From an uncultured Actinomycetes bacterium (GTDB lineage: Bacteria; Actinomycetota; Actinomycetes; Streptosporangiales; Streptosporangiaceae), in NCBI GenBank assembly GCA_963837105.1, contig CAWIMG010000021.1, forward strand, positions 1 to 64,000: a stretch of DNA of 64,000 nt, written 5' to 3'. A program made the translations under genes and the position numbers. How positions within the stretch are numbered: the stretch's first letter is position 1; each line of letters opens with the position of its first letter. Shown here piece after piece: positions 10,513 through 59,083 of the stretch. The notes under the pieces were generated by a model. That model was not told where the DNA came from and did no database searches. It saw only the letters and a list, made by a program, of their open reading frames with translations.

Positions 10513-10515
10513 GGC

Positions 10516-11019: not shown

Positions 11020-11120
11020 ACCTACTCAACGCACGACGGCCGGATCCGGACTACCGGCCGCTACGCACCGGCGGCCGGCTCACCCGGCCGTGGCTGCCCG
11101 CTCCCCTACACTGCTTCCCC

Positions 11121-18086: not shown

Positions 18087-18121
18087 TTGTACGCGCTATG
18101 CGCGGAAAAGTCTTCCGGCGG

Positions 18122-19312
18122 TCAGGACTTCCGTGGTTCCGCGCCTTCGATGGCCGGCTGGCCGGCCGGTTCGGGTGAGGCCGCACCATTGGCCGCGGCC
18201 CGTTCCGGCGCGGCGGCCCGTTCCGGTGATGACGCCAGGTTCTGCTTGACCGACTCCAGGATGGTCAGGCCCTGAGCGACCAGGCCCGCGGCCAGCTCGC
18301 TGAGTCCCTCAGCGCCGTTGAGCACGTTGACGTTGGCCCCGGCCAGGCCGCCGGCCGCTTCCTTGACGATCTGCGGGAGCTGATCGATCAGCATCCTGTC
18401 CAGTGCGACCCGGTCGTTCGACGCAGCCGCCTCGGCCTGGATCCGCATCCGTTCCGCGTCCGCCCTGGCGATGATGCGGACCCGCTCCGCCTCCGCCTCG
18501 GCCGGCTTGACCACCTCGGCGACCAGCTGTCGCTCGCGCAGCTCGGCCTGCTGCCGGGCCAGCTCGGCCTGGGCGGCGATGACCTCCAGCTGGGCCTGTG
18601 CCTGGGTGAGCGGCCCCATCTGCGCGGCCTTGGCCTGCGCCTGGTCGACCTCGGCCTTGTACTGGGCCTGCACGACCGCTGTCTGCCGGGCGTATTCGGC
18701 CTTCTTGCGCTCAGCTTCCTGCTGCGCTTCGGCGGCCTGCTGGGTGGCCTGTGCCTGGGCGATCTGCGCCTGCCGCTGGATGGCCGCGTTGTGCGGGGCG
18801 GCCATCGCGTCGATGTAGCCGGAGTTCATGTCATCAATGGACTGGATCTGCAGTGAGTCCACGGTCAGGCCGATCTTGGCCATTTCCGCCTTGGAGCCGT
18901 CCAGCACCTCCGTCGCCAGTTTCTGCCGTTCGGTGACGATCTCCTCGACCGTCATCGACCCGATGATCGAGCGCAGGTGGCCGGCGAAGATGCGGCCGGT
19001 GAGGGTGGACATCTGGTCCTGGTCGGACAGGAACCGCTGGCCCGCGTTGACGATGCTCTCGTCGTCGTTGCCGACCTTGAACGCGATGACAGACCGGACG
19101 TTCAGCGAGATGCCCTGCCGGGTCACGCAGGTCTCGGCGACCTCGGACTCACACATCGCCAGGGTGAGATAGCGGGCCTTGCGGAAGAGCGGCAAGACGA
19201 ACGCGCCATGGCCGACCACGACCCGGAACGGTGCGCCAGTGCCGCCCCGCCAGCGCCTGCCGCCGGAGATCAGCATGGCCTGGTCGGGGGCGGGGACACG
19301 GTAACCAAACAT
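18122..19312 (-). CDS. Flotillin-family SPFH/Band-7 protein
   Basis: SPFH domain followed by a long Ala/Gln/Glu-rich coiled coil (AQAQATQQAAEAQQEAERKKAEY...). Confidence 0.8.
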   Translation of the reverse strand: MFGYRVPAPDQAMLISGGRRWRGGTGAPFRVVVGHGAFVLPLFRKARYLTLAMCESEVAETCVTRQGISLNVRSVIAFKVGNDDESIVNAGQRFLSDQDQMSTLTGRIFAGHLRSIIGSMTVEEIVTERQKLATEVLDGSKAEMAKIGLTVDSLQIQSIDDMNSGYIDAMAAPHNAAIQRQAQIAQAQATQQAAEAQQEAERKKAEYARQTAVVQAQYKAEVDQAQAKAAQMGPLTQAQAQLEVIAAQAELARQQAELRERQLVAEVVKPAEAEAERVRIIARADAERMRIQAEAAASNDRVALDRMLIDQLPQIVKEAAGGLAGANVNVLNGAEGLSELAAGLVAQGLTILESVKQNLASSPERAAAPERAAANGAASPEPAGQPAIEGAEPRKS

Positions 19313-19323
19313 GGTCAGGCTCC

Positions 19324-19656
19324 TCAGACAGCCTTGTCAGGAAAGGGATCCAGCGGGTCGGTCCATTCGCTGACGTCCACCGACCGGCTGCCGCGGGACT
19401 CGATGACCAGGACGGTCGCGCCCTTCGGGATCGGGTCGATGGACCAGGCGAGATAGGCCTCGGTGCCGCCCCGGATCTTGAGCAGCACCTCACCCGGGCC
19501 GGCCTGGCCGCGGGTGGCGATCAGCAGCACGCCGATGGCCCCAATCAGGGACTGATCCCCAGGCACCGTCCGCACTCCCTCGCGCCACTGGGAAACTGGC
19601 TCACACCCTATCCCGCTGGCCGTCGTCCGCTCCTGGCCCGGCCAAACCATGATCAT
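19324..19656 (-). CDS. NfeD-like OB-fold protein; N-terminus uncertain
   Basis: C-terminal GEVLLKIRGGTEAYLAWSIDPIPKGATVLVIESRGSRSVDV is NfeD OB-fold-like; directly upstream of the flotillin gene. The N-terminus may be truncated or frameshifted. Confidence 0.45.
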   Translation of the reverse strand: MIMVWPGQERTTASGIGCEPVSQWREGVRTVPGDQSLIGAIGVLLIATRGQAGPGEVLLKIRGGTEAYLAWSIDPIPKGATVLVIESRGSRSVDVSEWTDPLDPFPDKAV

Positions 19657-19854
19657 GGAAAGACGGAATAGGCCGGCGGGCGCGGCTGTTACATCGGTCG
19701 CTGGTGTGCTTGTGTCCCCCGGGCCGCATCCACAACTGCCGTCGCGGACTACCGTCCGGCTGGAGCCGCGGTGTGCTTCTCGCCGAGGAGGCGACCACAC
19801 ACCAGCCTGACGAAGCCCCTGCGAGCCCGCTCCAGGGGCTTCGTCATGCCGGGA

Positions 19855-20837
19855 TCACTCAGGCGCGGCCGGCCAGGCGAACCCCGTCGCCGCCGTGATG
19901 TCGCCCGGCCGTGGCAGCGCCGCCTGCGCCCCGCGCCGGGTGGTCGCCGCCGCACCCGCGGCACAGGCCGCGCGCACCGCGGTGGCCGGGCCGGCCCGGC
20001 CGCCACCGCCACGGCCAGCGCCGCCACGAACGCGTCGCCGGCCCCGACGCTGTCCACGCTGGCCACTGCGAACCCGGGCACCATCACCAGCGGCCCAGCG
20101 CCGCCAACCACGGCCCCGGCGGCTCCCAGCGTGATGACCACCTGCCGGGCACCGAGCCTGGCCAGGGCCGCGACCGCGGCCGCGAGCCCGTCCCCGGTCA
20201 CCGGGCGGCCCAGCACCGCGGCCGCTTCCTGCTCGTTGACCACCAGCCAGTCCACCCCGATGGCGAGCAGATCCGCTGCCCCGTCGGGCGCGGGTGCCAG
20301 ATTCAGCACGCAGGGCAGGCCGACTGTCCGCGCCCGGTCCAGCACCGCCGCGACCAGCGCGGCCGGGATCTCCGCCGACAGCACCAGCACGTCACAGGGC
20401 GCGGCCAGGGCCGCCGCCGCCTCAGGGTCCCCGGCCATGGCGTTCGCACCGGCCGCCGCCGCGATCGCGTTCTCGCCCGAACCGTCCACGGTGATCAGGG
20501 CCAGCCCGGACGTGACCCCCGCGACCGCCCGCACCGCGGTGACGTCCACCCCCTCGGCGGCCAGCCCGGCCCGCAGCCGGGCACCGAACTCGTCCGCGCC
20601 GCAGCAGCCCACCATCCGCACCGCCGCGCCCAGCCGGGCCGCGGCCACCGCCTGGTTGGCGCCCTTGCCGCCACCGCCGACATCGGCTCCGGCCGCCGAC
20701 AGGACCGTCTCCCCGGCGCGCGGCAGATGCGGGACCAGCAGCGAGATATCGGTGTTCAGGCTGCCGACAACGGTCACCCGGGGACGCTGCCGGGTGAGGC
20801 CCAACCGCCAATCCGCCACCCGGTCATGATCAGCCAC
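19855..20837 (-). CDS. rbsK: Ribokinase (PfkB family) with an apparent C-terminal frameshift near 20000
   Basis: VTVVGSLNTDISLLVPHLPRAGETV...GGGKGANQAVAAARLG...GAGDAFVAALAVA. The true C-terminus (AAGAAATTRRGAQAALPRPGDI) is in another frame. Confidence 0.7.
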
Positions 20838-21613: not shown

Positions 21614-23074
21614 TTATTCCGCCCGGGCCATGGCGTCGGCGGGCCGGAGCCGGGCGGCCTGCCAGCCGCCGAGCGACCCGGCCAGCAGGCCGCCGGCGAG
21701 GGCCAGCAGCACGGCGAGCAGGATCGCGCCGACCGTGACCGTCGCGCTGAGATGAACCGTGACCGCGCTTGCCGTGTCGCCGAACAGGCGGCGGAACCCC
21801 GATCCCGGGCTGCCCCCGAAGCCACCCGGAGGCCCCCCGGTGACGACCTGGGCGCCGCCCGGCGTGGCCGAGCCGGTGGCCGGGCCCAAGGAGGCGGTCA
21901 GCGGCCGGGACAGCGAAGACACCAGGTTGGCGCCAGCGAAGCCGAGCCCGATTCCCACCAGTCCGCCAGCGATGCCAATGACCAGCGACTCGCCCATGAC
22001 CTGGCCAGTGATCCGCCTGCTGCGCCAGCCGAGGGCCTTAAGGGTGCCGAACTCCCGCACCCGGCGGCTCACCGCGGCGATGCTCAGCAGGCTGGCCAGC
22101 AGGAACGCGGCGGCAAGCACCGCGATGGCCAGCCACTTGCCGAGGTTGCGGGCCAGGCTGGCCGCGCTGGCCAGCGACCCGGTCACCTCGCTGGCCAGGC
22201 TGCTGGCGGTGGTCACGGTAGCCCCGGGGACCACGGCATGGATCTGCTGGGACACACTGCCGATGTCGGACGCGCTGCTGGCTGCTACGTACACCGTGTT
22301 GACCTGGTTCTTCATCCCGGCCAGGGCCTGCGCGCGGCCGAGCGGGATGTACACGTCGGCCGGGTCGCCGCCCTGCGGCTGGCTGACGATCCCGATCACC
22401 TTGAAGCTGTTGCCCGCGACGTCGATGGCGGAGCCGGTGCCGAGCTTGTGCTGGGTGGCGTAGCCGGAGTCGAGCACGGCCACGTTCGCGGTCGCGTCGG
22501 CGGTCGTGAAGGTCCGGCCGGAGACCAGCTTGCCGGAGCTGAGCGGGCCAACCTCGCCCGCGGACAGCTGGGTGCCGTCCACCGTGAGCGTGCTGACATG
22601 GAAGTTGGTCGGCCCGCCGAAACCGCCGCCAAACCCGCCGCCAGCCGGGGCCGACGGGATGGTGCCGGACACCGAGAGGTCGGTCAGCACCAGCGCGCCC
22701 CCCGCAGCGGCGACACCGTGCAGCCGGGAGATCGAGGTGACCGACGTCGAGCTGAGCGGCCCCAGCGTGCGGTTGATCAGCGTGCTCCGGCTGAACGAGG
22801 TTCCCGCCTTGGGCCGCTGACCGGAGTTGAGCGCCCGCCGCCCGACCCGGAACCCGAACGGGCCACCGGAGTTCACCGCGGGGGCCTTGGTGACCGTGAT
22901 GTCGGTGCCGACCCCGTACAGCGAGTGCAGCACCGTGTCCTGCGCCTGGGCGACCCCGGCGGAGGCGGACATGACGGTGATGACCAGCCCGATCCCGACC
23001 GCGATCCCGAGCGCGATGAACACCGCCTGCCGGATCCGCCGCCGCAGCTCGCGCCGCAGGTAGGTGAAGAACAT
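21614..23074 (-). CDS. ABC transporter permease, FtsX/MacB family
   Basis: 486 aa; N-terminal TM, large periplasmic domain, C-terminal FtsX 4-TM domain. Confidence 0.85.
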   Translation of the reverse strand: MFFTYLRRELRRRIRQAVFIALGIAVGIGLVITVMSASAGVAQAQDTVLHSLYGVGTDITVTKAPAVNSGGPFGFRVGRRALNSGQRPKAGTSFSRSTLINRTLGPLSSTSVTSISRLHGVAAAGGALVLTDLSVSGTIPSAPAGGGFGGGFGGPTNFHVSTLTVDGTQLSAGEVGPLSSGKLVSGRTFTTADATANVAVLDSGYATQHKLGTGSAIDVAGNSFKVIGIVSQPQGGDPADVYIPLGRAQALAGMKNQVNTVYVAASSASDIGSVSQQIHAVVPGATVTTASSLASEVTGSLASAASLARNLGKWLAIAVLAAAFLLASLLSIAAVSRRVREFGTLKALGWRSRRITGQVMGESLVIGIAGGLVGIGLGFAGANLVSSLSRPLTASLGPATGSATPGGAQVVTGGPPGGFGGSPGSGFRRLFGDTASAVTVHLSATVTVGAILLAVLLALAGGLLAGSLGGWQAARLRPADAMARAE

Positions 23075-23240
23075 GGGTTTTCCCTCCGTCCAGCCCCGTG
23101 TCGGTCGAAATCCTGGCGGCGCGGTCTGGAGGGACCCTGAACCGTTCCTGCGAAGTCACTGATCTTTTTCCCGGTCGGCACAGCCCGGGACCGCGTAGCC
23201 GGCGCCACGCCGGGACGGCGTCAGCGGCACACCGGAACGG

Positions 23241-24682
23241 CTACCGGCGGGTGTGGAGGACGAGCCAGATACCGGTGACATCCCAGCGGCGGACCGGGTG
23301 GAAGCCGGGCCCGGCCAGTACCGGCACGTTGCCCCGGCCGGCGCCGGTTTCCACGCCCCGCAGGCGGGTGACGGTGGCCAGCCGGGTCCGCACCACCGCG
23401 GTGGGCGCGCCGGTGGCGGGCAGGTGCCCGGCGCTGATCGCGGTCTGGCCCAGCGCGATGTCACCCAGGCCCCGGTAGCGGGCCGGGTGGGCCGCCTGGA
23501 ACTCCCGGTCATTTGCGCCCGGCGAAGATCACCACGTCACCGGGCCGGGCATGCCGGGCCCGGCAGGTGGCTGAGCTGCCGGAGGTTCTCGCTGTGCCCG
23601 GCACCGCGCGGGCATGCTGCAGGCCCGGCAGCCCGGCCAGCACAATGAGGATCAGCCCCACCACGCCCAGCCAGCGGCCCAGCGCCGCCAGCGCGGTCCC
23701 CGCCAGCAGCACCGCCGCCGCGATGCAGAACACCACATACCGGAAGACAGCAGGACGGGTGCAGCAGCGAGCCCGCCAGCAGCAGCACGGCGGGCAGCAG
23801 CAGCCACGGCACGGCCAGCGCCAGCAGCGGCGCCGGCCACCCGGCCCGCAGCCGGGCACGGCCACGCGCCGCACCGGCCACCACCACACACACGACGATC
23901 ACACCGGCCACCAGGGCCGGCCGGACCCCACCGGCCAGGCCGGTGACCTCCTTCAGGCTGACCGGCTTGACCCAGACCTCCTCATGACGCTGCGCCCAGG
24001 CCAGCACCACCACCGGACTGACCACCACACACGCCGCCACCACCGCCGCCAGCCAGCCCCACAGCAGCTTCCGCGCCTCCCCGGCCGGGCCCGGCCCGCC
24101 CGGGCCATCCACCCGGCCCGCCCGCCGCAGGCTCAGCAGCAGCAGCGGCAGGTGCGCCGGGATCAGCAGCAGGCCGAAGACATTGGCCAGCCCCAGCCCA
24201 GCCAGCGCCGCCCCGTACCCGGCCAGCCAGCGCCCCCGGCGGCCCGGCCCGGCGGCCAGCGCCCGCACCAGCAGGTAACCGGCCACCGCCGCCAGCGCAG
24301 CCACCAGGGCATACGGACGGGCCACCTGGCCGTACCGGCTGACCGACGGCAGCGCCACGAACACCAGCCCGGCGGCCGCCCCCGGCGGCACCAGCCACCG
24401 CCCAATCACAGTCATGAACGCAGCCGCCATCGCCACCGCGGACAGGAACCGCAGCGCCATCTCACCACCGCCGGACACCCGCACCCAGAACCACATCAGC
24501 AGGCAGCAGGCGCCATGCACCGCGTCCTGATAGCCCAGCATCCGCAACATCTGCGGCAGCGACCGGTGCACCGCGGCCAGGATGGCACCCCCGTCCCGCC
24601 AGAACGACAGCCACTGGACCTGGCAGAGCACCACCGCCAGAATGACCACAGCTGGCATGACCAGCAGCCAGCCCGAGCGCAC
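23241..24682 (-). pseudogene. GT39 / PMT_2-like membrane glycosyltransferase with about two apparent frameshifts (~23509, ~23750)
   Basis: Polytopic N-terminal domain spread over ORFs 23537..24682 and 23509..23889, plus an unlisted high-GC3 frame running to a stop near 23241. Confidence 0.45.
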
Positions 24683-24894
24683 CCGCCCCGGCGGTGCGCC
24701 GCTGCCCGGACACCGTGCCGTCCGGCCCGTGAACCGTCACCGGGCTGCCAGCACAAGCGGTCACAAGCTGTCCTCACGGCCGCAGCGGACAGCAGCCTGA
24801 AACCCCGGGCCAGCGCACACGCGGATCATGCCGGATTGCCACTTCACGTGCCCAGACCCGGCCAGCGGCAGCCGGTTCGCGGCACCACCGCCGG

Positions 24895-25899
24895 TCAGTT
24901 ACTCCGCATGGCACGCAACGACTCGCGCAGCGAGCCCATGGTGGCCAGCACCGCCGACGGCTCATATCCGCAGTGCGCCATGCAGTTGGCGCAGCGCGGA
25001 TCCTTGCCCCGGCCGTAGGCGTCCCAGTCGGTGGTCTCGATCAGCTCCTGGTAGCTGGCGGCGTAGCCGTCGGACATCAGGTAGCAGGGCCGCTGCCAGC
25101 CGAGCAGCGAGTAGGAGGGGATTCCCCAGGCGGTGCAGCCGAAGTCGGCCTTTCCTTCCAGGAAGTCCAGGAACAGCGGCGAGTGATTGAGCCGCCAGCG
25201 GCCGCGGTTGCCGTTCGCGAACGCCTTCCGGAACAGTTCCGTGGTCTCGCCCACCCCCAGGAAGTGCTCCTGGTCGGGTGCCCGTTCGTAGGCGTATGCC
25301 GGGGAGATCATCATCTGGTCTACCGACAGGTCGTCGTTGAGGTAGTCGAGCACGTCGATGACCGTCTGCGGGGTGTCGGTGTTGAAGAAGGTGGTGTTGG
25401 TGGTGACCCGGAAGCCGCGCCGCTTGCACTCGGAGATCGCCGCCACCGCCTGGTCGAACACGCCCTCTTTGCACACCGACTCGTCGTGCCGCTCACGCAG
25501 CCCGTCGATGTGCACCGCCCAGGCAAAGTAGCGCGACGGCGTGAACTTGTCGATCTTCTTCGGGATCAGCAGCGCGTTGGTGCACAGGAAGACGTACTTC
25601 TTGCGCTTGACCAGCTCGCTGACCAGCAGGTCGATCTGGGGGTGCATGAGCGGCTCGCCGCCGGCGATGGACACCATCGGCGCGCCGCACTCCTCGATCG
25701 CGGCCAGCGCCTGTGCCACCGGCATCCGCTGCTTGAGCACGTCGTGCGGCTGCTGGATCTTGCCGCAGCCCGCGCACTTGAGATTGCACGCGAACAGTGG
25801 CTCCAGTTCGACCAGCAGCGGGAACTTGTCCCTCCTGGCGATCTTCTGGCGCATCAGATACGCCCCGATCCGCAGGCTCTGGCGCAGCGGCATGGTCAT
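24895..25899 (-). CDS. hpnH: Adenosyl-hopene transferase HpnH (radical SAM)
   Basis: CNLKCAGCG radical-SAM cluster motif; ~334 aa; within the hopanoid cluster. Confidence 0.85.
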
Positions 25900-27419
25900 G
25901 ACGACCTGACCTCCTTGGGCAGGCTGAAACGGATGGATTCGGTGGCGGTGACGCGCTCGCTCACCTCGACCGGTCCGAGACCGGCGAGCGCGGCCACAAT
26001 GTGCCCAACGACTGCGGGCGGTGCCGACGCGCCCGCGCTGATGCCGACCGTGCCGGCCCCGGCCAGCCAGCCCAGTTCGATGTCGTCCGGCCCGTCGATC
26101 AGGTAGGCCGGGACCCCGGCCCGCTCCGCGGTCTCCACCAGCCGCAGCGAGTTGGAGGAGTTGCCGGAGCCGGCCACCAGCACCAGATCGGCCTCGGCGG
26201 CTACGGCCTGGACGGCCCGCTGCCGGTTGGTGGTGGCGTAGCAGATGTCGTCGCTGCCCGGCGCCCGCGCCTGCGGGAAGCGTTCCCGCAGCGCCCCGGC
26301 CATCTCCCCGGCTTCGTCCACCGACAGCGTGGTCTGCATGAGATAGGCGACCTTGCCCGGGTCGGCGGGCCGCAGCCGGGCGACGTCCGCAACCGACTGC
26401 ACCAGGACCGTCGACTCCGGCGCCTCGCCCAGCGTGCCGTCGACCTCCTCGTGCCCGGCGTGCCCGATCAGCGCGACCAGGTAACCGTCGGCGGCGAACC
26501 GGCGGGCCTCGGCGTGCACCTTGGCCACCAGCGGGCAGGTGGCGTCGATCGTGTCGAGCCCGCGCCGGTCGGCCTCGGCCCGGACGGCGGGCGAGACCCC
26601 ATGCGCGGAGAACACCACCCGCGCTCCATCGGGCACCTGCCCAAGTTCGTCCACGAAGATCGCGCCGCGCTGCTCCAGGCCGGCCACGACGTGCGTGTTG
26701 TGCACGATCTGCTTGCGCACGTAGACCGGCGGCCCGTACCTGTCCAGCGTCTTCTCAACGATCTCGATGGCCCGTTCCACCCCGGCGCAGAACGACCGCG
26801 GCCCAGCCAGCAGCACCCGCCGCGGCCCGGCGGCCGCGGCCCACCGGGTCAGCGCCGGACCAGCTGCCCGCAGCGACTTCAGCGCCCGCCAGCCCCCGGC
26901 CAGCCCGCCCGGCAGCAACGGCCGCTCCGGCGTATCGGACACCGCCCGCACCACCGCCAGCGGCCGCCCCACCGCCCCGGCGGCCAGCCACGCGGATTCC
27001 AGATCGACCGCCACCGCCCCGGCGCTCGCCGCCCGGGCTTTGTCCCGCCCGCCCCGCAGCCGGTCCACGCTCACCACCGGCCCGGCCGCAACCGCCAGCC
27101 CGGCCCTGCGCAACTCCCCCGCCAGCAACGTCGAAGACGGGCACACCGTAGTGGTCATCCCATCGGCGACCTCAGTCGCCACCACCACGTCGCCAGGCCT
27201 GAGATCCGGGGCCAGCCCCCCGCCAGTCCCCGCCACCGCCAGCGCCCCAAACGCCTCTCCGGCGAGTCTCTCCGCATACCGTTTAGCCCGCTCCGGCCCA
27301 TACCCGGAAACCCGGACCTCGCCCCCAGCACCAACTCCGGCCCGGACCGCCACCGCCTCCGGCAGCAGCGGCGCACACGCCACCAGCCGTCGCGCGGATC
27401 CCGGCCCCGGCACCCTCAT
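25896..27419 (-). CDS. ispH: Fusion of an HpnG-like nucleosidase (PNP/UDP family) domain with IspH/LytB
   Basis: N-terminal ~200 aa is nucleoside-phosphorylase-like ([10 protein letters not shown]...). The C-terminus carries IspH motifs [25 protein letters not shown]. Confidence 0.75.
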
Positions 27420-29423
27420 GCCCCACCGCCCAGATACCGCCCGAGCGCACTCACCGGGAAGACCAGCCGATAGAGGTGATAGTTCAGATAGAAATCGCGC
27501 GGGAACCCCGTGCCCGTGAACTGCGGCTCATCCCATGTCCCATCGGGACGCTGATGCTCGCACAGCCACCGAATGCCCGCTTCGACCGCTGGGCTGGCGA
27601 GCCGGGCGTCCGGTGCCCCCGGTCGGGGCGTTATGCCCGGACCGGGGGTGCCGTGCGCACGGCCCAGGCCTTCGCCATCAGCCAGCAAGGCGAGCAGCGC
27701 CCAAGCGGTCTGGGACGCGGTCGACTCGCCCTGACCGGCCAGGGAAGGGTCATCGTAAGAACGCAGATCCTCGCCCCAGCCGCCATCCGGGTTCTGGTGG
27801 GATTCCAGCCAGGCGACAGCACGCCTGATAGCTGGTTTCTCCGGCTTCACTCCCGCCGCGATCAGGGCGGGGACGACAGCGCCGGTGCCGTAGACGTAGT
27901 TGGCGCCCCAGCGGCCGAACCAGGATCCGTCCGGCTCCTGGGCCTTCAGCAGCCAGACCACGCCGCGCCGGACGGCCCTGCTGCCGGCCTGACCTTCGGC
28001 GGCGAGGGCTTCGACGACATGAGCGGTGACGTCGGCAGAGGGCGGATCTATCACGGCGCCGAAGTCGCAGAAGGGGAGCTTGGTGGGCAGTTGCGAGGTG
28101 TTGTCGGCGTCGAAGGCAGCCCAGCCGCCGTCCCTGGACTGCATGCCGGTGATCCAGCGGAGGCCGCGATCGACGGCCCCTGCCCGGGCGTGGGTGCCTG
28201 GGCCGGTTACCCGGCGGAGGGCGAGGACGACTTCGGCGGTGTCGTCGATGTCGGGATAGGTGTCGTTGTCGAACTCGAACGCCCAGCCGCCAGGGGCCAG
28301 GCCGGGACGGCGGACCTGCCAGTCGCCGGGGCCGGTGATCTCCTCGGCCAGGATCCAGTGGGCGGCCCGGGCCAGGTCCGGGTCATCCGATGGCAGGCCG
28401 GCGTCGGCCAGGGCGATCATCGCCAGCACGGTGTCCCAGACCGGCGACTGGCACGCCTCCAGCCGGCGGACTGGCCCGTCCGGGGTCTGCTGCGTGATGG
28501 TGAAGCGATCCAGGCCGGCCAGACCGCGCCTGATCACCGGATGGTCGAGGCCGTAGCCGAGCAGGTGCAGCGCGATCAGTGAGTACACCCAGGGTGGCTG
28601 GATGCCGCCCCAGCAGCCGTCCTGCTCCTGGCGGGCGATGATCCACTTGGCGCAGCGGCGCAGCGCGGCCCGGCGGATCGCCTGTGCCGGGGCCAACCGG
28701 GGCCGGAGCCGTTCGTAGCGGTGCAGGGCCCGGTCCGCGCTGGCGAAGGCCGCCGTCCAGGCGGAGTCGTCCCGGGCGCGGGGAGCGTGCGGTGGCGGGT
28801 CGGTGGGCTGGGCGGCGGCCGGGGTCAGCTCGTCCAGGGTGAACGGGAGCGGGCGGACGGGCCGGAGGGAGCCGACGATGGTCAGCGGGACGATGGTCTG
28901 CCGGGCCCAGCAGGCCCAGTCGTAGACGTTGAGCGGGAACCAGGCGGGCAGGTAGATCAGCTCTGGCGGCATGACGGGCAGGTCGTCCCAGGGCCACAGG
29001 CCGAACAGGGCCAGCCAGAATCCGGGTGAAGACGCGGGTGGCCGGGTACCCGCCGCCGGCCCGGATCCAGGCAGCGGCCCGCGCCATGTGCTGAGTGGCC
29101 GGGTCGTGGCCGGCCAGCCGGAGCGCGACGTAGGCCTCGACCGTGGTGGACAGGTCACCGGGGCCACCGTAGAAGTTGGCCCAGGTGCCGTCCGGGCGCT
29201 GCTGGGACATGATCCACCGGGCAGCCGCCGCGGTCTGCTCCGGCGTGCGGACTCGCAGGAATTCCCGCAGCAGCAGGTCCTCGGCATCCATGGTGACGTT
29301 GGTCGCCAGCTCGCCCTGCCACCAGCCCTGCTCATGCTGGCGGCCGAGCAGGTGGTCACGGGCGCGGGCCAGCGCCCGCGCTGGGGTGACGCCTGCCGTC
29401 ACCGCCGCCGGCGTGCTCACCAT
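27416..29423 (-). CDS. shc: Squalene-hopene cyclase with an apparent frameshift near 29025
   Basis: QW and DGGWGE motifs ([45 protein letters not shown]). The N-terminal ~130 aa (MVSTPAAV...[32 protein letters not shown]) lies in the frame of ORF 28383..30971. Confidence 0.8.
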
Positions 29424-30458
29424 TGCCGCGCCGTGATGAACTCGGCGATGCCGGTGAACTCGGCCTGGATGCCCGTGGGCACACCGGTCCTGGCCAGGCA
29501 GGTGTGTGCGGCCGCAAGCTGCCGGGCCGCCTCCTCCTCGGTCCACGACTTGCCGCCGGCCGCCGCCACCAGGTCGGCGGCGTGGACCAGGTCGTCCTCG
29601 GTCAGCGCGTCCTGGCGGGCGAGCAGGACGGCAAGCTCGGCTGACTCCGGCGCGCCCGCGCACAGGGCGGCCACCACCGGCAGCGACTTCTTCCTGGCCC
29701 GCAGGTCGGACCGGACCGGCTTGCCGGTCACCTCCGGGCTGCCCCAGAATCCCGAGCAGGTCATCGGTGAGCTGGAAGGCCAGGCCGGCGTGGGCGCCGA
29801 ACGCGGCCAGCCCCATCGCCAGCTGGGGCGGGGCCCCGACGTGGATGGCACCGATGCTGCACGCGCAGGCCATCAGCGCCGCTGTCTTGTCGCCGGCCAT
29901 GGCCAGGCATTCGGCCAGCGAGACGTCGTCGCGCTGCTCGAAGGCCAGATCCGCACCCTGGCCGGCGATCAGCCGCTGCACCGCTACCGACAGCGCCCGG
30001 GCCGCCCACACCCCCTGCGGTGCGGTGTCCTCCAGCAGGATGTCCTGCGCCAGCGCGAGCATGGCGTCGCCGGCCAGGATGGCCGCTCCCACGCCATACA
30101 CCGTCCACGCGGTCGGCCGGTGCCGCCGCTCGGTGTCGCCGTCCATGATGTCGTCGTGCAGGAGGGAGAAGTTGTGCACCAGTTCCACGGCCACCGCGGC
30201 AGGCACCCCGCGCTCCGGTGCGGCATCGGCGGCCCGGGCCGACAGCAGGGTGAGGGCCGGCCGCAGTGCCTTGCCCGCAGGCTTGGCCGCGGAACCGGCC
30301 GGGTCCGAGGTCGCCCCCCGCTCCGTCCCGTCCGCCAGGCCCAGGTGGTAGGCCGCCACCCGGCGCACGTCGGGGGTGAGCCTGGCCACAGCCGTGGCCA
30401 GGGCCGGGCCGACCAGGTCACGGGCGGTCTGGACGCCGGCCGGCATGACGGCCGTCAT
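29417..30458 (-). CDS. Polyprenyl diphosphate synthase (FPP/GGPP synthase; hopD-like) with an apparent frameshift near 29750
   Basis: First DDxxD (LLHDDIMDGD) and second (FQLTDDLLGI) are in one frame; the C-terminus GKPVRSDLRARKKSLPVVAAL is in ORF 29417..29851. Confidence 0.75.
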
Positions 30459-30464
30459 GCCGGC
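30439..30464. repeat. Perfect 26-bp palindrome GCCGGCATGACGGCCGTCATGCCGGC spanning the hpnE stop / polyprenyl-synthase start overlap
   Basis: Direct base-pair check: every position i pairs with 30503-i. Confidence 0.8.
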
Positions 30465-31915
30465 ACCCCCGCGCGGGCGATCGCGGGCATGCCACCTGCC
30501 ATCGCGCGATCCCGGCGCAAGGCCCGTACCGCGTTCAGTCCGCTCCGCACGGCTCCCTCCATCGTGTCCGGCCAGCCGGTGTCGGTCCACGCACCGGCCA
30601 GCACCAGCCCCGGCACGGCGGTGACGGCCGGTGGCCGCAGCCGCTCGCATCCAGGCACCTGGCGCAGCGTGGCCCGCCGCTCCCTGGTGACGAAAAAGTC
30701 GGTGACCCGTGCGTCCCGCGCGGCAGGCAGCAGTTCCGCCAGGGCAGGCAGGAACTCCGCCCGCAGCGCCGACGCCGGGACGTCCACATAGCTGTCCGCC
30801 GCGGACAGCGAGATCGCGAGGTACTGGCCGGCCCGCAGCCCGGACGGGCCGGTTCGGTCGAAGACCCACTGCACCGGCGAGCCGACCGCGGCCAGGAACG
30901 GCAGCCGGGTCACCCGCCGGTCGTAGATCACATGCACGTTGACGATCGGCGAGGTGGCCAGTTCGCGCCACTGGGCCGGCCCGGGCTGGCCCCGGCCGGC
31001 CTGGCGCCGATCCCCGTCCGCGTCAGCGGGCATAAGCCGGGCCGCCACCTCCGGCGGCACCGCGAGCACCACGCCATCGGCCTCGATGACCCCCTGGCCG
31101 TTCCCGCCCCGGCGCTCGGCCAGCCGGACCCGGAACCGGGCCGCTGCCCCGTCCGCCCGGGCCGGCGGCAGCACGGACACCTCCGCCGCCTTGGCGGCCA
31201 GCCGCACCTGTGCGCCCAGCCGGCCGAGCAGGGTGGCCGCGGCCCGGCCGTGCAGGTCACCCAGCGGGATCGTGGGCACCCCAATGTCGGCCGCGTCCCG
31301 CGCGCCCAGCAGCGCCGTCTTCACCACGGTCGCGGCCAGCGCCAGGTTGGCGTCATCTCCGGGCACGTTCAGCGACGACACCGTGAACAGGTCCCACAGC
31401 ATCCGGCGGGTGCGCTCGTCCTGGCCGTGAGCGGCCAGCCAGTCGCCCAGCCGGGCCGCGTCCAGGTCGGCGCGGTCCGGGTTCAGCGCCGCCATGGCCA
31501 GTGCGGCCCGGGCCACCCGCAGGCGTTGCGGATAAGAAAGGAGCCGGTAGCCAGCGAGAGCCGCGCCCAGGTGCAGCGGGCCGGGCAGCCCGGTGCGGCG
31601 CAGCCGGGCCCGGCCACCGGGGCTGGCCACGGTGATGTCGAACCGGTCCTGCAGGCTGACCGACCCGGCCATGCCGAGCCGGGCGAGCAGTCCGCGGTAG
31701 GCCGTGCAGCAGCGCAGGAACACATGCTGGCCGTTGTCGACGGTCAGGCCATCGCGGCTGAACGAGCAGGTGGCGCCGCCGAGCCGGGGCCGGGCCTCCA
31801 GCAGGGTGACGCTGGCCCCGGCCTCGCTGAGCGCGATCGCGGCGGACAGGCCCGCCAGCCCGCCGCCGATTACTGCCACCCGGCGCCCGGCCAGCGCCGC
31901 CGGCCGCCCGGTCAC
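30455..31915 (-). CDS. hpnE: Hydroxysqualene dehydroxylase HpnE (FAD-dependent amine-oxidase family)
   Basis: N-terminal Rossmann VAVIGGGLAGLSAAIALSEAG; position after hpnD. Confidence 0.8.
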   Translation of the reverse strand: MTGRPAALAGRRVAVIGGGLAGLSAAIALSEAGASVTLLEARPRLGGATCSFSRDGLTVDNGQHVFLRCCTAYRGLLARLGMAGSVSLQDRFDITVASPGGRARLRRTGLPGPLHLGAALAGYRLLSYPQRLRVARAALAMAALNPDRADLDAARLGDWLAAHGQDERTRRMLWDLFTVSSLNVPGDDANLALAATVVKTALLGARDAADIGVPTIPLGDLHGRAAATLLGRLGAQVRLAAKAAEVSVLPPARADGAAARFRVRLAERRGGNGQGVIEADGVVLAVPPEVAARLMPADADGDRRQAGRGQPGPAQWRELATSPIVNVHVIYDRRVTRLPFLAAVGSPVQWVFDRTGPSGLRAGQYLAISLSAADSYVDVPASALRAEFLPALAELLPAARDARVTDFFVTRERRATLRQVPGCERLRPPAVTAVPGLVLAGAWTDTGWPDTMEGAVRSGLNAVRALRRDRAMAGGMPAIARAGVPA

Positions 31916-32820
31916 CGGGCCGCTCCCGCCGGGGCGGTCCGGGGTATCCGGGGACGCAGCGCGGTGCCCAGCGACCGGGCCGCCACCATCGCCTTCTCAC
32001 CGGTGGACAGGGAGACCCGGCGCTCCAGGACCGCCTGCGGGCTGGCGGCGATCCGCTTCAGCAGCCGGAAGTAGATGCCGGCCATGGCACCGGCGGAGGC
32101 CGCGCTGCGCCAGTCGAGCAGCGGCATCAGCGCCAGCCCCCGGGCGTACCAGGTGGTGGCCCGATCGGCCTCGAACTCCACCAGTTCCGCCAGCTTGCCG
32201 CGGTCAGCCGGTCCGTCGGCCAGCGAGCAGCCGAACCGCTCGAAGTCCTCGGCCGGCAGATAGACGCGCCCGTCCTGGTAGTCCTCGCGGATGTCCCGCA
32301 GGATGTTGGTGAGCTGGAGGGCAACCCCCAGCGCGTCCGCGAGCGGGGCGGCGGTGGCGACGTCGGAGGTGCCGAACACGCCCAGCGACAGCCGGCCGAT
32401 CGAGCCAGCCACGCACCGGCAGTAGTGCAGCAGATCCTCGAAGGTGCGGTAGGTAGCCCCGCGCACGTCCGCCTCGCAGCCGTCGATGAGCTCGCCGAAT
32501 GCGGCCAGCGGGATGTCGAACCGGCCCGCCGCGTCGGCCAGGGCCACCAGCACCAGATCCTGGCCGGCGCCGTTGTCACTGGCTGGCGGCCCGCCGTCCC
32601 GCAGCGCGGCCAGGCTCGCCCGCGCCTGTGCCAGGGCGGCCAGCTTGTCCGGCCGGGGCAGGTCGCCGTCGCCGATGTCATCGACCCGGCGGGCGAAGGC
32701 GTACACCGTGGCCAGCGCCTGCCGCTTGGCCGGGGGAAGCAGCCGGATGCCGTAGGAGAAGTTTCGCGCCTGCGACCAGGTGATCTGCTCACAGTGCCGG
32801 TAGGCGGCAGCGACGTTCAT
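31912..32820 (-). CDS. hpnD: Presqualene diphosphate synthase HpnD (squalene/phytoene synthase family)
   Basis: YAFARRVDDIGDGD (DxxxD) motif; ORF opens at 32955; the internal ATG (MNVAAAYRHC) is the likely start. Confidence 0.8.
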   Translation of the reverse strand: MNVAAAYRHCEQITWSQARNFSYGIRLLPPAKRQALATVYAFARRVDDIGDGDLPRPDKLAALAQARASLAALRDGGPPASDNGAGQDLVLVALADAAGRFDIPLAAFGELIDGCEADVRGATYRTFEDLLHYCRCVAGSIGRLSLGVFGTSDVATAAPLADALGVALQLTNILRDIREDYQDGRVYLPAEDFERFGCSLADGPADRGKLAELVEFEADRATTWYARGLALMPLLDWRSAASAGAMAGIYFRLLKRIAASPQAVLERRVSLSTGEKAMVAARSLGTALRPRIPRTAPAGAAR

Positions 32821-32824
32821 GGCC

Positions 32825-33841
32825 TCACCGCCCGCCCGCGTAGGCCCGCAGGAATTCGCCGGCCACCCGCGCCCGGCCGGGCCGCGGGGTGGCCGGGAGC
32901 GGGTCGTGACCGCTGGCGGTGATGGCCGCCAGTGCCGCCCGGCCGCCAGCCACATAGCCGGCCACCGCTACCCGGGCCGCCCCGCGCAGCGTGCGGACGA
33001 TCGGCGCCCCGGCGTCCAGCAGTTCGCGCGCGCGGCATACCTGGAACGCGATCAGGGCACGGACATCTGGCCCGGCCCGCGGTGCGGCCAGGTCCGCCTC
33101 GGTGACCCCGAACCGGTTCAGGTCCGCCAGTGGCAGGTAGATCCGGCCGGCCCGCAGGTCCTCGGCCACATCCTGGCAATGCTCGGCCAGCTGGAGCGCG
33201 GTGCACACCCGGTCCGACAGCGCCTCGCGCGCGGGCGTGGCTGCCCCGAAGATGTGCAGCACGATCCGGCCGACCGGGTTGGCCGACAGGCGGCAGTAGC
33301 CGAGCAGGTCAGCGAAGTCCGGATAGCGGGTCACCACCTGGTCCTGCCGGTTCGCCTCGATCAGGTCCAGGAAGGGCTGCGCGGGGATGGCACAGCTGAC
33401 GACGGTCCCGGCCAGCGCCCGGACCACCGGCAGCCGCGGCCCGGCGTCGTCGAGCGCCATCCTGCCCGTGTCACCGCCAGGCGCGGCCGCGTCCCCGATC
33501 CCGGCCGCATCCCCAGGCACGGCCGCGTCCCCCGCGCCGGGCAGCACCGGACCGCCCGCCCAGCGAACCTTGCGATAGAGCCGCTGGATGTCCGCCTCCA
33601 GTTCGTCCAGCAACGCGAGCCGCTGCCCGGGAGCCGCCTCGTCGCCCATGTCATCGACGGTCCGGGCGAATCCGTAGACCGCCGCCAGGTGCCCCCGGTA
33701 CCGGCGCGGCAGTACCCGGAGGGCGACCGGGAAGTTCTCCGCCCCGGCCTGGGCGGCGGCCGCGACGCCGATGGCGACGGCCGCCGCGCTGACCTCCCCG
33801 GCGGCGCGGTATTCACCAGTTCGCGTCGTCTCGGGGGTCAC
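32825..33841 (-). CDS. hpnC: Hydroxysqualene synthase HpnC (squalene/phytoene synthase family)
   Basis: YGFARTVDDMGDE motif; GTG start preceded by AGGGGAG; first gene of the operon. Confidence 0.8.
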   Translation of the reverse strand: MTPETTRTGEYRAAGEVSAAAVAIGVAAAAQAGAENFPVALRVLPRRYRGHLAAVYGFARTVDDMGDEAAPGQRLALLDELEADIQRLYRKVRWAGGPVLPGAGDAAVPGDAAGIGDAAAPGGDTGRMALDDAGPRLPVVRALAGTVVSCAIPAQPFLDLIEANRQDQVVTRYPDFADLLGYCRLSANPVGRIVLHIFGAATPAREALSDRVCTALQLAEHCQDVAEDLRAGRIYLPLADLNRFGVTEADLAAPRAGPDVRALIAFQVCRARELLDAGAPIVRTLRGAARVAVAGYVAGGRAALAAITASGHDPLPATPRPGRARVAGEFLRAYAGGR

Positions 33842-33881
33842 TCCCCTATCCCTTCATAGTTGGCGCACAAATGCAAATAAT

Positions 33882-33909
33882 GACATCGGCGTCACCTGAC
33901 ACCGATGTC
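33882..33909 (-). promoter_or_regulatory. 28-bp near-perfect inverted repeat GACATCGGCGTC-acct-GACACCGATGTC, 40-70 nt upstream of the hpnC start
   Basis: Arms match 11/12; lies in an AT-richer ~570-bp leader/intergenic region (33842-34414). Confidence 0.45.
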
Positions 33910-34414
33910 GTAGAACAGCCTGGCGGGGGCTGGCCGCCGGCGCTGGGATAGCATTTATGCCTAGCCGCCACTGAGCCGCACGGCCGACCGTTAATAGCCG
34001 GCTTTGAGCGCGGGTGTTGGGGCCTTGGGCATGCTGACGCAGACCCGCCGCCGGTCGCTACCTTGCTGTCCGTGCCGCCGGGTATGGCACGTCATCGCAG
34101 TTCACGGGCACGGCACCGGCCCACGACACCGGCTACGCCCCGGATCCGCGCTCCGCGGTCCAGCGGGCCCGCCGGGCGACCGGTCGCGCCAGAATAGGCG
34201 CCTGGCAGGCGGTTCCATGCCACTTGCCGGTGGCACGCCGTGTTACCGGCAGCTTTCCCCGGAGTTCATTTGCCCGGGCACCGGCTGCGCAGCGCCGTTC
34301 GGCATCGGCGTGGCCCGCCGCTGGCCGCTTTCACTGACATGTGTGTCAGATAAAATGCGGATACGTTTGGGCAATTAACTGACGCTTATGTCATATTTCG
34401 GTGTGCATGAGCAC

Positions 34415-35554
34415 TCAGCCGCGCCAGATGAGGGCCAGCGCGCAGTCGTCGCCGCCACCGCCGGCCTGCATGACCCGCACCAGATCCGCGGCACCCGCCC
34501 GGAACCCGGAGGTGACCAGCCGGTCCGCCTCGCCCAGCAGCCGGTCGGTGCCATAGTCGATGTCCCGGCCGCGCGCCTCGACCAGGCCATCGGTGTACAG
34601 CATCAGCGCGTCACCCGGCCGGAGGGTGCCGCGCTCGGGAACCAGCCGCAGATCGGCGACCACTCCCAGCACGATGCCCCGGGCCTGAGTGAGCCGCCAG
34701 GTGCCGCTGCTGGCGTCGAAGTGCGCCGCCGGCGGATGCCCGGCCGAGGTCACCACGTACTCACCAGTGGCCAGATCCAGAGCCAGGTGGACGGCCGTGA
34801 CAAAGCCCTCAGGCAAGCCGCCCCGGCGCAGGTAGGCATTGCAGGCGGCCAGGAACTCCTCCTGCGGGACCGAGCCGAGCAACCCGCCGAACGCCCCGGA
34901 GAGCAGCAGCGCACGGGTGCCGGCGTCAACCCCCTTGCCTGCCACATCCACCAGTGCGACCTCCAGCGTCTTGCCATCACTGGCGGAGACCAGGAAGTCA
35001 CCCCCGAACGATGAGCCACCCGCGGGCCGGAGCACCGATACCGATCCCCAGCCATCGGGCAGTCCCGGCAGCATGCCCTGCGCCCGGATCCGGTCCCGCA
35101 ACTCGACCAGCATCTGATTGCCGCGCAGACCCTGCATGCCGAGCTTCTTCCTGGTGCGCGCGAGCGCGTCCGCCAGCAGGGCGGTGACCACGATGGTCGC
35201 GACCAGCGCCGGGCCCGCCCGGCCGGCCACCACGTCGTAGGCCAGGCCGACCGCGATCACGCCAAACAGGATGCGCAGCGCCCGCGGCCACAGCAGCAGC
35301 CCGCCGGCCAGCACCGGCAGGATCAGCAGGCCGGGCGAGAACCACGACGCCGACCCGTGCACGGCCGCCACGCTGATGGCGACGGTGGCCAGCGCCAGGG
35401 CCAGCGCCAGCCGCCGGTTCCGCGTGATCAGCTGCTGCCGCACGAAGCCGCTCAGCCTGCTCGCGGCACGGCGGGCAGCGAGCACCGAACGGGACCAGCC
35501 AGGCACAACCATGATGGCCGCACTGTATCGGCCCACCAGGGGTTGGGGAACCAC
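34415..35554 (-). CDS. PP2C-family serine phosphatase (SpoIIE/RsbU-like) with an N-terminal membrane domain
   Basis: N-terminal TM helices; C-terminal PP2C motifs GGDFLVSASDG...DVAGKGV...YTDGLVEARG. Confidence 0.75.
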   Translation of the reverse strand: MVPQPLVGRYSAAIMVVPGWSRSVLAARRAASRLSGFVRQQLITRNRRLALALALATVAISVAAVHGSASWFSPGLLILPVLAGGLLLWPRALRILFGVIAVGLAYDVVAGRAGPALVATIVVTALLADALARTRKKLGMQGLRGNQMLVELRDRIRAQGMLPGLPDGWGSVSVLRPAGGSSFGGDFLVSASDGKTLEVALVDVAGKGVDAGTRALLLSGAFGGLLGSVPQEEFLAACNAYLRRGGLPEGFVTAVHLALDLATGEYVVTSAGHPPAAHFDASSGTWRLTQARGIVLGVVADLRLVPERGTLRPGDALMLYTDGLVEARGRDIDYGTDRLLGEADRLVTSGFRAGAADLVRVMQAGGGGDDCALALIWRG

Positions 35555-35622
35555 ACGCGCCGCGGCCAGGCAGGCGGTAACTGATTGGCCCCGCAGGACC
35601 CAGCCGGGGTATCAAGGGCGGC

Positions 35623-36975
35623 ATGGGTATCCCGTATCCGCTCCGCCTGATCACCGAGGACGAACTCCCCGGCCTGCACACCGTGCATGAGCATGCCTTC
35701 CAGGACGGCCCGCTGTCCGACGCTTCCCGCACCCGCATCCACGCCCGGATCGAGCTGGACCGGACGCTGGCCGCCTTCGACGGCCCGGTGATGGTCGGCG
35801 TGACCAGCGCGTACAGCTTCCAGATGCGGATCCCCGGTGCGCTGGCCGCCGTCGCCGGGGTGACCATGGTCGGCGTCCTGCCCACCCACCGCCGGCGCGG
35901 CATCCTGTCCGCGCTGATGCGCCAGCAGCTGGCCGACATCCATGCCCGCGGCGAAGCCACGGCCGCCCTGTTCGCGTCCGAAGCGGGCATCTACGGACGT
36001 TACGGCTACGGCCGTGCCTCCTGGCACACCAGCTACGAAGTGCACGGCGGCGAAGGGGCGCTGGCCCCGGGCGCCCCTGCCGACAGCGCGCTGCGGCTGC
36101 GGATCGCCGAGCCCACGGCGGCCCGCGCGGAACTGGCCAAGGTCTACCAGGCGGTGCTGGACGAGCGGCCCGGCCTGTACGCCCGCAACGACGCCTGGTG
36201 GGACCGGCTGCTGGCGGACGAGCCCGAGGACCGGGCCGGCGCCAGCCCGCTGCGCTGTGTCATCGCCGAGGATCCGGCCGGGCCACGCGGATACGCCTTG
36301 TTCTCCGGCATGTCGAACTGGGATGGGGCTACCTTCCTGCCCAACTCATCGGTCTCGATCCGCGAGGTCATGACCGCCGACCCGGCCGCCGCCGCGGCCA
36401 TCTGGGCTGACCTGCTGAGCCGGGATCTGACCACCGAGTTCCGCACCCAGCTGCGGCCGGTGGACGACCCGGTGCTGTACCTGCTGGCCGATCCGCGCCG
36501 GCTCCGCCCCACCATCGCCGACGGGCTGTGGGTGCGCCTGGTCGATGTCCCCGCCGCGCTCGGCCAGCGCCGTTACGCCTGCCCGGTGGATGCCGTTATC
36601 GAGGTGACCGATGACCTCTGCGGCTGGAACCAGGGCCGGTGGCGGCTCACCGCGGGCGGCGCGGGCGGGCCCGCCCGCGCCGGGCACGCGGGCGGCCAGC
36701 CACCCGGTTTCGCCGCCAGCTGCGAGCCGGCTACCGGCGCGGCCGACATAGCGCTGCCGGTCAGTGCCCTCGGCGCCGCCTACCTCGGCGGGACCAGGCT
36801 CGGCGCCCTGGCCGCCGCCGGGCAGGCCACCGAACTGCGGCCGGGCGCACTGGCGGCGCTGTCGGCCGCCATGTCCTCGGATCCCGCACCCTGGTGCCCG
36901 CAGAATCTTCTGATCCACCCGGTGAGCATGGTGGGGCGGTGCCGGGTGAGCACCGGTGGGCCCGGCGCTGGATGA
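35623..36975 (+). CDS. Eis-like GNAT N-acetyltransferase (GNAT plus sterol-carrier-like C-terminal domain)
   Basis: VLPTHRRRGILSALMRQQL...; overall collinear with M. tuberculosis Eis; C-terminal PAPWCP motif. Confidence 0.75.
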   Translation: MGIPYPLRLITEDELPGLHTVHEHAFQDGPLSDASRTRIHARIELDRTLAAFDGPVMVGVTSAYSFQMRIPGALAAVAGVTMVGVLPTHRRRGILSALMRQQLADIHARGEATAALFASEAGIYGRYGYGRASWHTSYEVHGGEGALAPGAPADSALRLRIAEPTAARAELAKVYQAVLDERPGLYARNDAWWDRLLADEPEDRAGASPLRCVIAEDPAGPRGYALFSGMSNWDGATFLPNSSVSIREVMTADPAAAAAIWADLLSRDLTTEFRTQLRPVDDPVLYLLADPRRLRPTIADGLWVRLVDVPAALGQRRYACPVDAVIEVTDDLCGWNQGRWRLTAGGAGGPARAGHAGGQPPGFAASCEPATGAADIALPVSALGAAYLGGTRLGALAAAGQATELRPGALAALSAAMSSDPAPWCPQNLLIHPVSMVGRCRVSTGGPGAG

Positions 36976-47951: not shown

Positions 47952-48107
47952 GTCGTGGTTGTGGCCATCACGTCGCAAGAACGACGTGGCTGCGGCAACC
48001 ATGACGTAGCAGGCCGGGGCGGGGCGGGCACCGGAGGCCTGGAGAGTGCCGCTGGGGGGCGCGCCGCGCCGGTAGGCTGAGGGCTTCAGCACCGGGAGGA
48101 AACGATC

Positions 48108-58969: not shown

Positions 58970-59083
58970 GGTCAGGGCACCAGGCAGAAACCACAAGGCC
59001 ACGGGAACTGGCCTAGCGCGGACACCGGCCGGATATTATCACCTCGTTCCGTGGCCGGTTTGGGTGGCGAGTAGGACTGGAAC

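Follow-up and report, generated by a model that had tools for sequence, protein, structure and literature searches.

The 64,000-nucleotide stretch analysed here (positions 1 to 64,000 of contig CAWIMG010000021.1, assembly GCA_963837105.1, from an uncultured member of the Streptosporangiaceae; hereafter the window) carries the standard hopanoid operon of a Streptosporangiaceae-like actinomycete, and the palindromes upstream of its first gene, hpnC, are best read as operator sites and not as a folded RNA leader. Open reading frame (ORF) listing combined with Pfam and NCBIfam scans identified seven genes on the minus strand between 24895 and 33841, namely hpnC, hpnD, hpnE, a polyprenyl-diphosphate synthase gene, shc, an HpnG-like/IspH fusion gene and hpnH. 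Judging from conservation in related lineages, a TetR-type repressor likely controls the operon through these operators, and its gene presumably lies elsewhere in this genome. Two of the operon genes, shc and the prenyl synthase gene, are interrupted by frameshifts that are probably errors of the assembly (see below). Taken as a whole, we regard this explanation as probable. What it adds is modestly new: for hopanoid synthesis in this clade, it predicts from sequence an operator motif that is conserved and a TetR protein as candidate regulator; literature searches on the HpnG–IspH fusion, the operator motif and regulators of actinomycete hopanoid synthesis found nothing relevant.

Operator-like sites upstream of hpnC

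The non-coding region between a PP2C phosphatase gene and hpnC spans 573 nt (33842–34414, minus strand), shows no coding signal in the G+C content of third codon positions (GC3) and has no Rfam match. It had initially been described as an AT-richer non-coding stretch of about 570 bp. Its length, its non-coding nature and its lower G+C content were confirmed (64.7% compared to 73.5% in the operon and 71.6% in the whole window), but only the two ends are AT-rich (57% and 46% G+C), while the central 360 nt reach 72%. A long intergenic region is kept in the relatives (370–1087 nt). A hidden small gene was rejected (flat GC3 frame plot, chance-like ORFs), as was a decayed TetR gene in the central part, for which sensitive tblastn gave noise only.

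The 28-nt inverted repeat reported earlier at 33882–33909 is real, with two arms of 13 nt around a 2-nt centre, one mismatch and a folding energy of −21.8 kcal/mol as RNA. It consists of two abutting 14-bp palindromes of the TGAC-N6-GTCA type. The proximal operator-like site O1 (33897–33910; minus-strand sequence CGACATCGGTGTCA) lies at −69 from the GTG start of hpnC and has one mismatch (CGAC); its half-sites GAC and TCA do not vary among 16 relatives, unlike its centre. Site O2 (TGACGCCGATGTCA; 33881–33894) lies at −53, is separated from O1 by a 2-nt spacer, matches TGAC-N6-GTCA exactly and keeps its register in 16 relatives. A distal pair of exact matches is found approximately 450 nt upstream of the proximal pair, comprising TGACACACATGTCA at 34335–34348 (−507; kept in the related loci L001, L081, L002 and L003) and TGACATAAGCGTCA at 34380–34393 (−552, 22 nt past the stop codon of the PP2C phosphatase gene), where AATATGACA is conserved in five relatives. 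The second palindrome of the initial annotation, CTGACA-N4-TGTCAG, corresponds to the distal copy at 34335–34348; it spans 34334–34349 and does not lie at approximately 34266–34281. Across the entire window, the exact motif occurs four times, three times in the 573-nt region and once inside a gene.

The same motif was strongly concentrated upstream of hpnC in the clade. We counted 38 exact matches in the 12.7 kb that make up the 700 nt upstream of hpnC in 19 related genomes (2.99 per kb) compared to 12 in their remaining 372 kb, a 93-fold enrichment, and none in 44 kb upstream of hpnC at 63 loci of other taxa, including all Streptomyces. The sites follow the consensus TGACRY-NN-RYGTCA. The proximal pair, with 16 nt from centre to centre, has a fixed form of cGAC-N6-GTCA, two bases, TGAC-N6-GTCA and then TTRTTTGCAT; neither its tandem layout nor the subsequent GTCATTRTTTGCAT varies in 16 relatives, and 18 of the 19 clade members have GTCATTRTTTG upstream of hpnC. 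In the closest relatives (L001, L081, L002, L003), the pair is located 53–69 nt before the conserved GTG, and the alignment of relatives defined a conserved promoter-proximal block on the minus strand at 33842–33916 (TTCTACGAC..GTCAGGTGAC..GTCATTATTTGCAT..GATAGGGGA-GTG). The distal copies vary in number and distance (−100 to −650). Extra motif matches downstream of hpnH in L008 were discarded as they lie inside coding sequence.

Because the half-sites are invariant, the centres are free to vary and single copies occur in isolation, the palindromes point to a dimeric DNA-binding protein and not to RNA structure. Of the two roles proposed for the region in the initial annotation, the operator thus gained support from the invariant half-sites and the enrichment of the motif, while the structured 5′ untranslated region did not. 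In the latter case, the transcript would begin close to the distal palindromes, and the 28-nt hairpin with AUUAUUUGCAUUUG behind it would act as an attenuator or terminator just before hpnC. The hairpin is indeed strong in the window (z-score −6), is followed by a T-rich tail and was picked up by a terminator scan, and the leader as a whole folds somewhat better than shuffled sequences (z −2.0 in the window, −3.6 in L001), an observation that counts against the operator reading. However, a covariance search of both strands of 23000–36000 against the Rfam families gave no match at E values up to 1, and the helix showed no covariation: in 16 aligned sequences, 79.2% of the cells of the 12-pair hairpin pair compared to 78.2% in shuffles, 155 of 500 shuffles reach the observed score and about half of the sequences leave the central four pairs unpaired. 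Strong folding (about −22 kcal/mol) is shared with L002 and L058 but lost in the closest relatives L081 and L001, where folding is ordinary (z 0.14 and 0.25), and the stem of the putative intrinsic terminator is not conserved either. In addition, the central 450 nt are little conserved, with sequence blocks common only to the nearest relative L001 and many indels compared to L081, and the single unpaired 14-mers at distal positions fit protein sites but not a stem. Overall, we consider a structured leader very unlikely.

The sister lineages provided a candidate for the binding protein. Five GTDB loci (L004, L008, L015, L018, L025) have a TetR-family gene encoded divergently to hpnC, with the tandem sites in the intergenic region between the two. 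This hpnC-associated TetR is strongly conserved (2721 proteins at E ≤ 1e-20); all five orthologues that were looked up are encoded divergently beside hpnC, with tandem sites in all four for which DNA was available. A metagenome scan found hpnC divergently upstream at 37 of 80 TetR loci, each with tandem sites, and about half of the other 43 had less than 1 kb of upstream DNA in which to search for hpnC. Together with L083–L087 and 37 of the loci L088–L167, the five GTDB loci make up a set of divergent TetR–hpnC pairs from Streptosporangiaceae-like genomes and metagenome contigs, and every pair inspected in detail has the tandem sites.

Several observations weigh against TetR control of the operon in this genome. 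No TetR gene is present in the window, nor within 10 kb of hpnC in L001 or L081, and in all three the PP2C phosphatase gene stands upstream of hpnC in its place. TetR homologues away from hpnC have no such site upstream and are found in housekeeping contexts; an autoregulatory operator was also looked for upstream of these non-adjacent homologues and none was found. In addition, no convincing sigma-70-type −35/−10 pair was found on the hpnC strand. Because the non-adjacent homologues have no site and none is encoded near hpnC here, the link between TetR and motif is drawn from their association in sister lineages. An alternative explanation is that the palindromes are operators of another regulator, such as a MarR-type or other dimeric helix-turn-helix protein, possibly an activator, which would agree both with the absence of a TetR gene near hpnC in this lineage and with the lack of the site upstream of TetR homologues in other contexts. 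Yet every hpnC-adjacent orthologue of this TetR that was checked sits over the same tandem sites, and an operator of paired palindromes next to a divergent regulator gene is classic for the TetR family, which makes another regulator unlikely in our view. The conservation of the sites implies that a protein binding them persists.

Since no convincing sigma-70 pair was found, the promoter was placed according to conservation. The invariant TGTCATTRT could be an extended −10 element; the conserved block could not be fitted to sigma-B-type, extracytoplasmic function (ECF)-type or leaderless promoters because of its spacing. In the proposed model of TetR-type control, the promoter would lie within approximately 75 nt of the hpnC start and be overlapped by the two abutting 14-bp palindromes, to which the conserved TetR-family regulator, divergent to hpnC in sister lineages, would bind, and the second site pair approximately 450 nt upstream could contribute through looping of the DNA. 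Gene identities, the spread of the fusion, the conservation of the motif, the lack of RNA covariation and the co-occurrence of TetR gene and motif in relatives are direct results; that the sites act in repression, which protein binds them in this genome, that the DNA loops and where the promoter lies are what we infer from these patterns. More tentatively, the TGAC-N6-GTCA sites and the hpnC-associated TetR might constitute a dedicated switch for hopanoid synthesis across Streptosporangiaceae-like and Trebonia-like actinomycetes, in which proximal and distal pairs loop and the regulator senses an isoprenoid or hopanoid intermediate. If true, hopanoid production in Actinomycetota would thereby have its first defined cis/trans control circuit. 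The on/off control of actinomycete hopanoid synthesis is poorly understood, and the motif and the candidate TetR offer a directly testable handle on it.

Gene content and interrupted reading frames of the operon

Gene identities were judged by the curated cut-offs of NCBIfam, which HpnC, HpnD, HpnE, IspH and HpnH exceed as given and squalene-hopene cyclase (SHC) exceeds after repair. The squalene synthase gene hpnC (32825–33841) has a GTG start that is conserved in the relatives (GTGAC), and its product matches TIGR03464 with 297.5 bits (cut-off 250.45) as well as Pfam SQS_PSY. It is followed by hpnD for presqualene diphosphate synthase (31912–32820; TIGR03465, 282.7 bits, cut-off 278.6), whose start lies 4 nt past the hpnC stop, and by hpnE for hydroxysqualene dehydroxylase (30455–31915; TIGR03467, 389.4 bits, cut-off 283.05), which shares a GTGA overlap with hpnD. 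The gene for a polyprenyl (farnesyl-type) diphosphate synthase (29417–30458) and shc (27416–29423) each carry a 1-nt insertion. The gene of the nucleosidase–IspH fusion (25896–27419) encodes 507 residues with a PNP_UDP_1 domain followed by a LYTB domain, and hpnH (24895–25899), which starts in an ATGA overlap with it, encodes the radical S-adenosylmethionine enzyme adenosyl-hopene transferase (TIGR03470, 524.7 bits, cut-off 225). Based on these assignments, farnesyl diphosphate from the operon’s own prenyl synthase would be converted to squalene by HpnC, HpnD and HpnE and then to hopene by SHC, HpnH would add adenosine to hopene, the N-terminal domain of the fusion would remove adenine to yield ribosylhopane, and its IspH domain, an operon-linked copy of the last enzyme of the methylerythritol phosphate pathway, would boost precursor supply.

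The seven genes and their order were thus as annotated initially, and their organisation as a single translationally coupled operon is supported by the family assignments, the overlaps and the same gene order in dozens of relatives. The junctions read, in order, TGAGGCCATG (hpnC/hpnD), GTGA, ATGA, ATGGTGA, ATGA and ATGA. An overlap of 4–7 nt, which had been claimed throughout, is present at five of the six, so translational coupling holds for those five, but hpnC and hpnD are separated by a 4-nt gap. Among the larger ORFs of the window that were scanned, none encodes hpnO, hpnI, hpnJ, hpnK, hpnP or hpnR, in agreement with the initial annotation.

In contrast, the operon cannot be called complete in the sequence as given, since two frameshifts interrupt it. 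The SQHop_cyclase_N profile of Pfam is divided between two frames (positions 2–119 in one, 118–290 in another), and the polyprenyl_synt match ends at profile position 195 of 251 with the rest of the synthase in the next frame. Reading all three frames placed the breaks between RVFTRI and WLALFG and between DDLLGI and WGSPEV, with one extra base each. In both cases GATCTG has become GATTCTG, with the extra T within the 9-mer GGATTCTGG at 29019/29020 in shc and at 29748/29749 in the synthase gene; the 9-mer is restricted to these two sites within the window, and all relatives examined read ATCTGG at both. With one T removed, the cyclase has 668 residues and scores 759.7 bits against TIGR01507 (cut-off 431.1), and the synthase has 347 residues and is 91% identical to its L081 homologue.

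We consider it likely that both frameshifts are consensus errors of an indel-prone assembly. At least seven genes are broken in 64 kb, and, because at least five genes besides shc and the synthase gene are split, the breaks in these two are probably errors as well. Strong evidence that the assembly carries indel errors comes from the housekeeping gene ilvD (dihydroxy-acid dehydratase; 48081–49987, plus strand), which is spread over two frames and split in short G/C runs near 48560–48600. Similarly, the TCAD9 and DSP-phosphatase gene (56632–59035, minus strand) is split at the only G7 run of the window at approximately 57700, and comparison to the L081 contig, which is 89–91% identical over 21 kb with all genes intact, revealed further 1-nt indels at the end of the GNAT gene, in the PMT_2 gene and in pfkB. 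The alternative is that the frameshifts are real and that the strain recently lost its squalene-hopene cyclase and operon prenyl synthase, leaving a young pseudogene cluster. Both genes are out of frame as given, and a third insertion turning GATCTG into GATTCTG is found on the same strand at 36904, close to where the adjacent GNAT gene ends, so that every minus-strand GATTCTG site of the window (29019–29020, 29748–29749 and 36904) is a single-T insertion compared to the relatives. Random error does not explain why all three insertions share one context and one strand; this looks like an error or mutation specific to context and strand, could reflect a specific mutational process and counts against the assembly-error reading. 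On the other hand, several of the other splits, which include ilvD, occur at homopolymer runs, shc and the synthase gene are open apart from the extra base, with proteins 87–93% identical to the L081 homologues, and the long-read metagenome-assembled genome loci L002 and L007 show similar scattered frame breaks in hopanoid genes, with shc spread over three frames in L002 and IspH over four in L007. A genuine loss of the two enzymes is therefore improbable.

Two further origins of the breaks were excluded. A blanket error at every GATC or GGATCTGG does not apply, as 439 copies of GATC and 13 of GGATCTGG are intact; ATTCTGG also occurs at 60638 and 34195, where it is in frame or conserved. Programmed frameshifting at GGATTCTGG was ruled out by the in-frame ATCTGG of all relatives. 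Frameshifts from long-read assembly can make an intact lipid pathway appear broken.

The HpnG-like/IspH fusion

Both domains of the fusion protein look functional, as far as family profiles and motifs can tell. The N-terminal domain (amino acids 1–195; 26835–27419, minus strand) matches Pfam PNP_UDP_1 (E = 1e-9), and its best NCBIfam match is HpnG (TIGR03468; 71.2 bits, profile positions 18–160 of 212). Its GGL..PGDVVV, AVDLES and VRAVSD motifs align with structures of methylthioadenosine/S-adenosylhomocysteine (MTA/SAH) nucleosidases, and over its full length it is approximately 40% identical to a stand-alone Streptomyces protein encoded between shc and hpnH. An HpnG-type domain is thus indicated by the best match, the position and the nucleosidase motifs, but the score remains below the cut-off of 187.1. 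The C-terminal IspH (4-hydroxy-3-methylbut-2-enyl diphosphate reductase) domain (25896–26834, minus strand) exceeds its cut-off (TIGR00216, 290.5 bits compared to 187.85), aligns end to end with Escherichia coli IspH structures (E = 8e-94), conserves the cysteine motifs FCAGV, ATCPLV and ICYATTNRQ and retains HxGHxE and SSNS. As read directly from the sequence, the last nucleosidase helix runs into the first IspH strand with few linker residues.

The fusion had been called unusual, which was not borne out: it is a common architecture in many Actinomycetota. At least 120 protein clusters (72–91% identity) share it, all of approximately 500 residues and nearly all with both Pfam domains, and at 26 of 80 hpnC-containing loci from species-representative genomes the nucleosidase part continues directly into the IspH part in the same frame without a stop. 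These fused loci include Streptosporangiaceae, Trebonia, Prauserella, Micromonosporaceae, Actinopolymorpha, Pseudonocardiaceae, Thermoleophilaceae, Solirubrobacterales and Gaiella, and Streptomyces and Embleya carry a stand-alone hpnG-like gene with no ispH at that place. Among cultured organisms, Prauserella shujinwangii shares the fusion. Because it is spread over this many loci and clusters, the fusion is old and common; it arose by the joining of adjacent hpnG and ispH genes and is not peculiar to this genome. Widespread as it is, the fusion is annotated only as IspH in the named members of these clusters. The exact HpnH and fusion proteins of the window are not on record in public collections, and HpnC of the best GTDB relative is 77% identical. 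A side observation concerns L032 (labelled Actinomadura viridilutea), where only the last third of IspH remains behind a nucleosidase-like part (10145–11059), which may be a decayed fusion.

Surrounding genes and comparison with known systems

A further hopanoid gene that had not been mentioned before, hpnB for the hopene-associated glycosyltransferase (16788–18095, minus strand; TIGR03469, 473.9 bits, cut-off 379), lies outside the reported interval approximately 7 kb downstream of hpnH and is also present in L081. It adjoins a flotillin-like Band_7 gene (pair at 16788–19336, minus strand), a pairing likewise seen in L081, and this proximity of hopanoid and flotillin genes may have to do with membrane microdomains. 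No terminator-like site was found after hpnH, which is directly followed by a PMT_2 gene (GT-C, mannosyltransferase-like) both in the window (23244–24764, minus strand, spread over at least three frames) and in L081 (12655–14196) and L082 (5678–7231); this gene is possibly part of the hopanoid locus. The place after hpnH is taken in L008 by a class-III aminotransferase gene (18961–20334) that is HpnO-like by its position; the window has no such gene there.

On the upstream side, the SpoIIE/PP2C-type phosphatase gene (34415–35554, minus strand; Pfam SpoIIE, E = 6.6e-29) is the conserved neighbour in this lineage and is syntenic in L001, L005, L007, L009, L010, L012, L058 and L081. No regulator gene is found beside the operon in the window, where the neighbours encode the PP2C phosphatase, an Eis-like GNAT protein, RpiB, an Rv2466c-like protein, PepN and MalQ. 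Farther away (9946–11025, minus strand), an ORF of 190 residues without family match, possibly for an anti-sigma factor, comes after the gene of a SigE-family ECF sigma factor, and a 1127-residue protein with DUF4062, cyclase, NB-ARC and TPR domains (59075–62455, plus strand) is encoded beside the split TCAD9/DSP-phosphatase gene, together looking like a conflict or defence-system island.

Similar to the Streptomyces coelicolor cluster (SCO6759-6771) and to proteobacterial hpn clusters, the operon has the core hpnC, hpnD, hpnE, polyprenyl synthase, shc, hpnG-like and hpnH genes in one direction, and the Streptomyces loci examined have the same gene order as the window. They differ from it in their stand-alone hpnG-like gene, with no ispH between shc and hpnH, where the window has the fusion, and in the absence of the operator motif upstream of hpnC. 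The S. coelicolor cluster contains ispG, dxs and an aminotransferase gene instead. The C-terminal 310 residues align with E. coli IspH (LytB; 3ke8, 3f7t, 4h4c) from end to end and retain the cysteine motifs that bind the cluster, whereas the protein encoded here, within a hopanoid operon, has an additional N-terminal nucleosidase-like domain of 195 residues. This domain resembles HpnG and the MTA/SAH nucleosidases in its best family match, its motifs and its position between shc and hpnH, but it scores below the family cut-off and is fused to IspH.

TetR-family repressors often control divergent target operons through operators that bind paired dimers, as exemplified by QacR on the 28-bp IR1. 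Unlike in QacR-type systems, the TetR gene is not adjacent to the operon in this genome, a second site pair lies approximately 450 nt upstream, and the sites described here are predicted operators. The likeness to these systems lies in the palindromic 14-mers placed 16 nt apart over the likely promoter and in the divergent TetR gene of the sister lineages.

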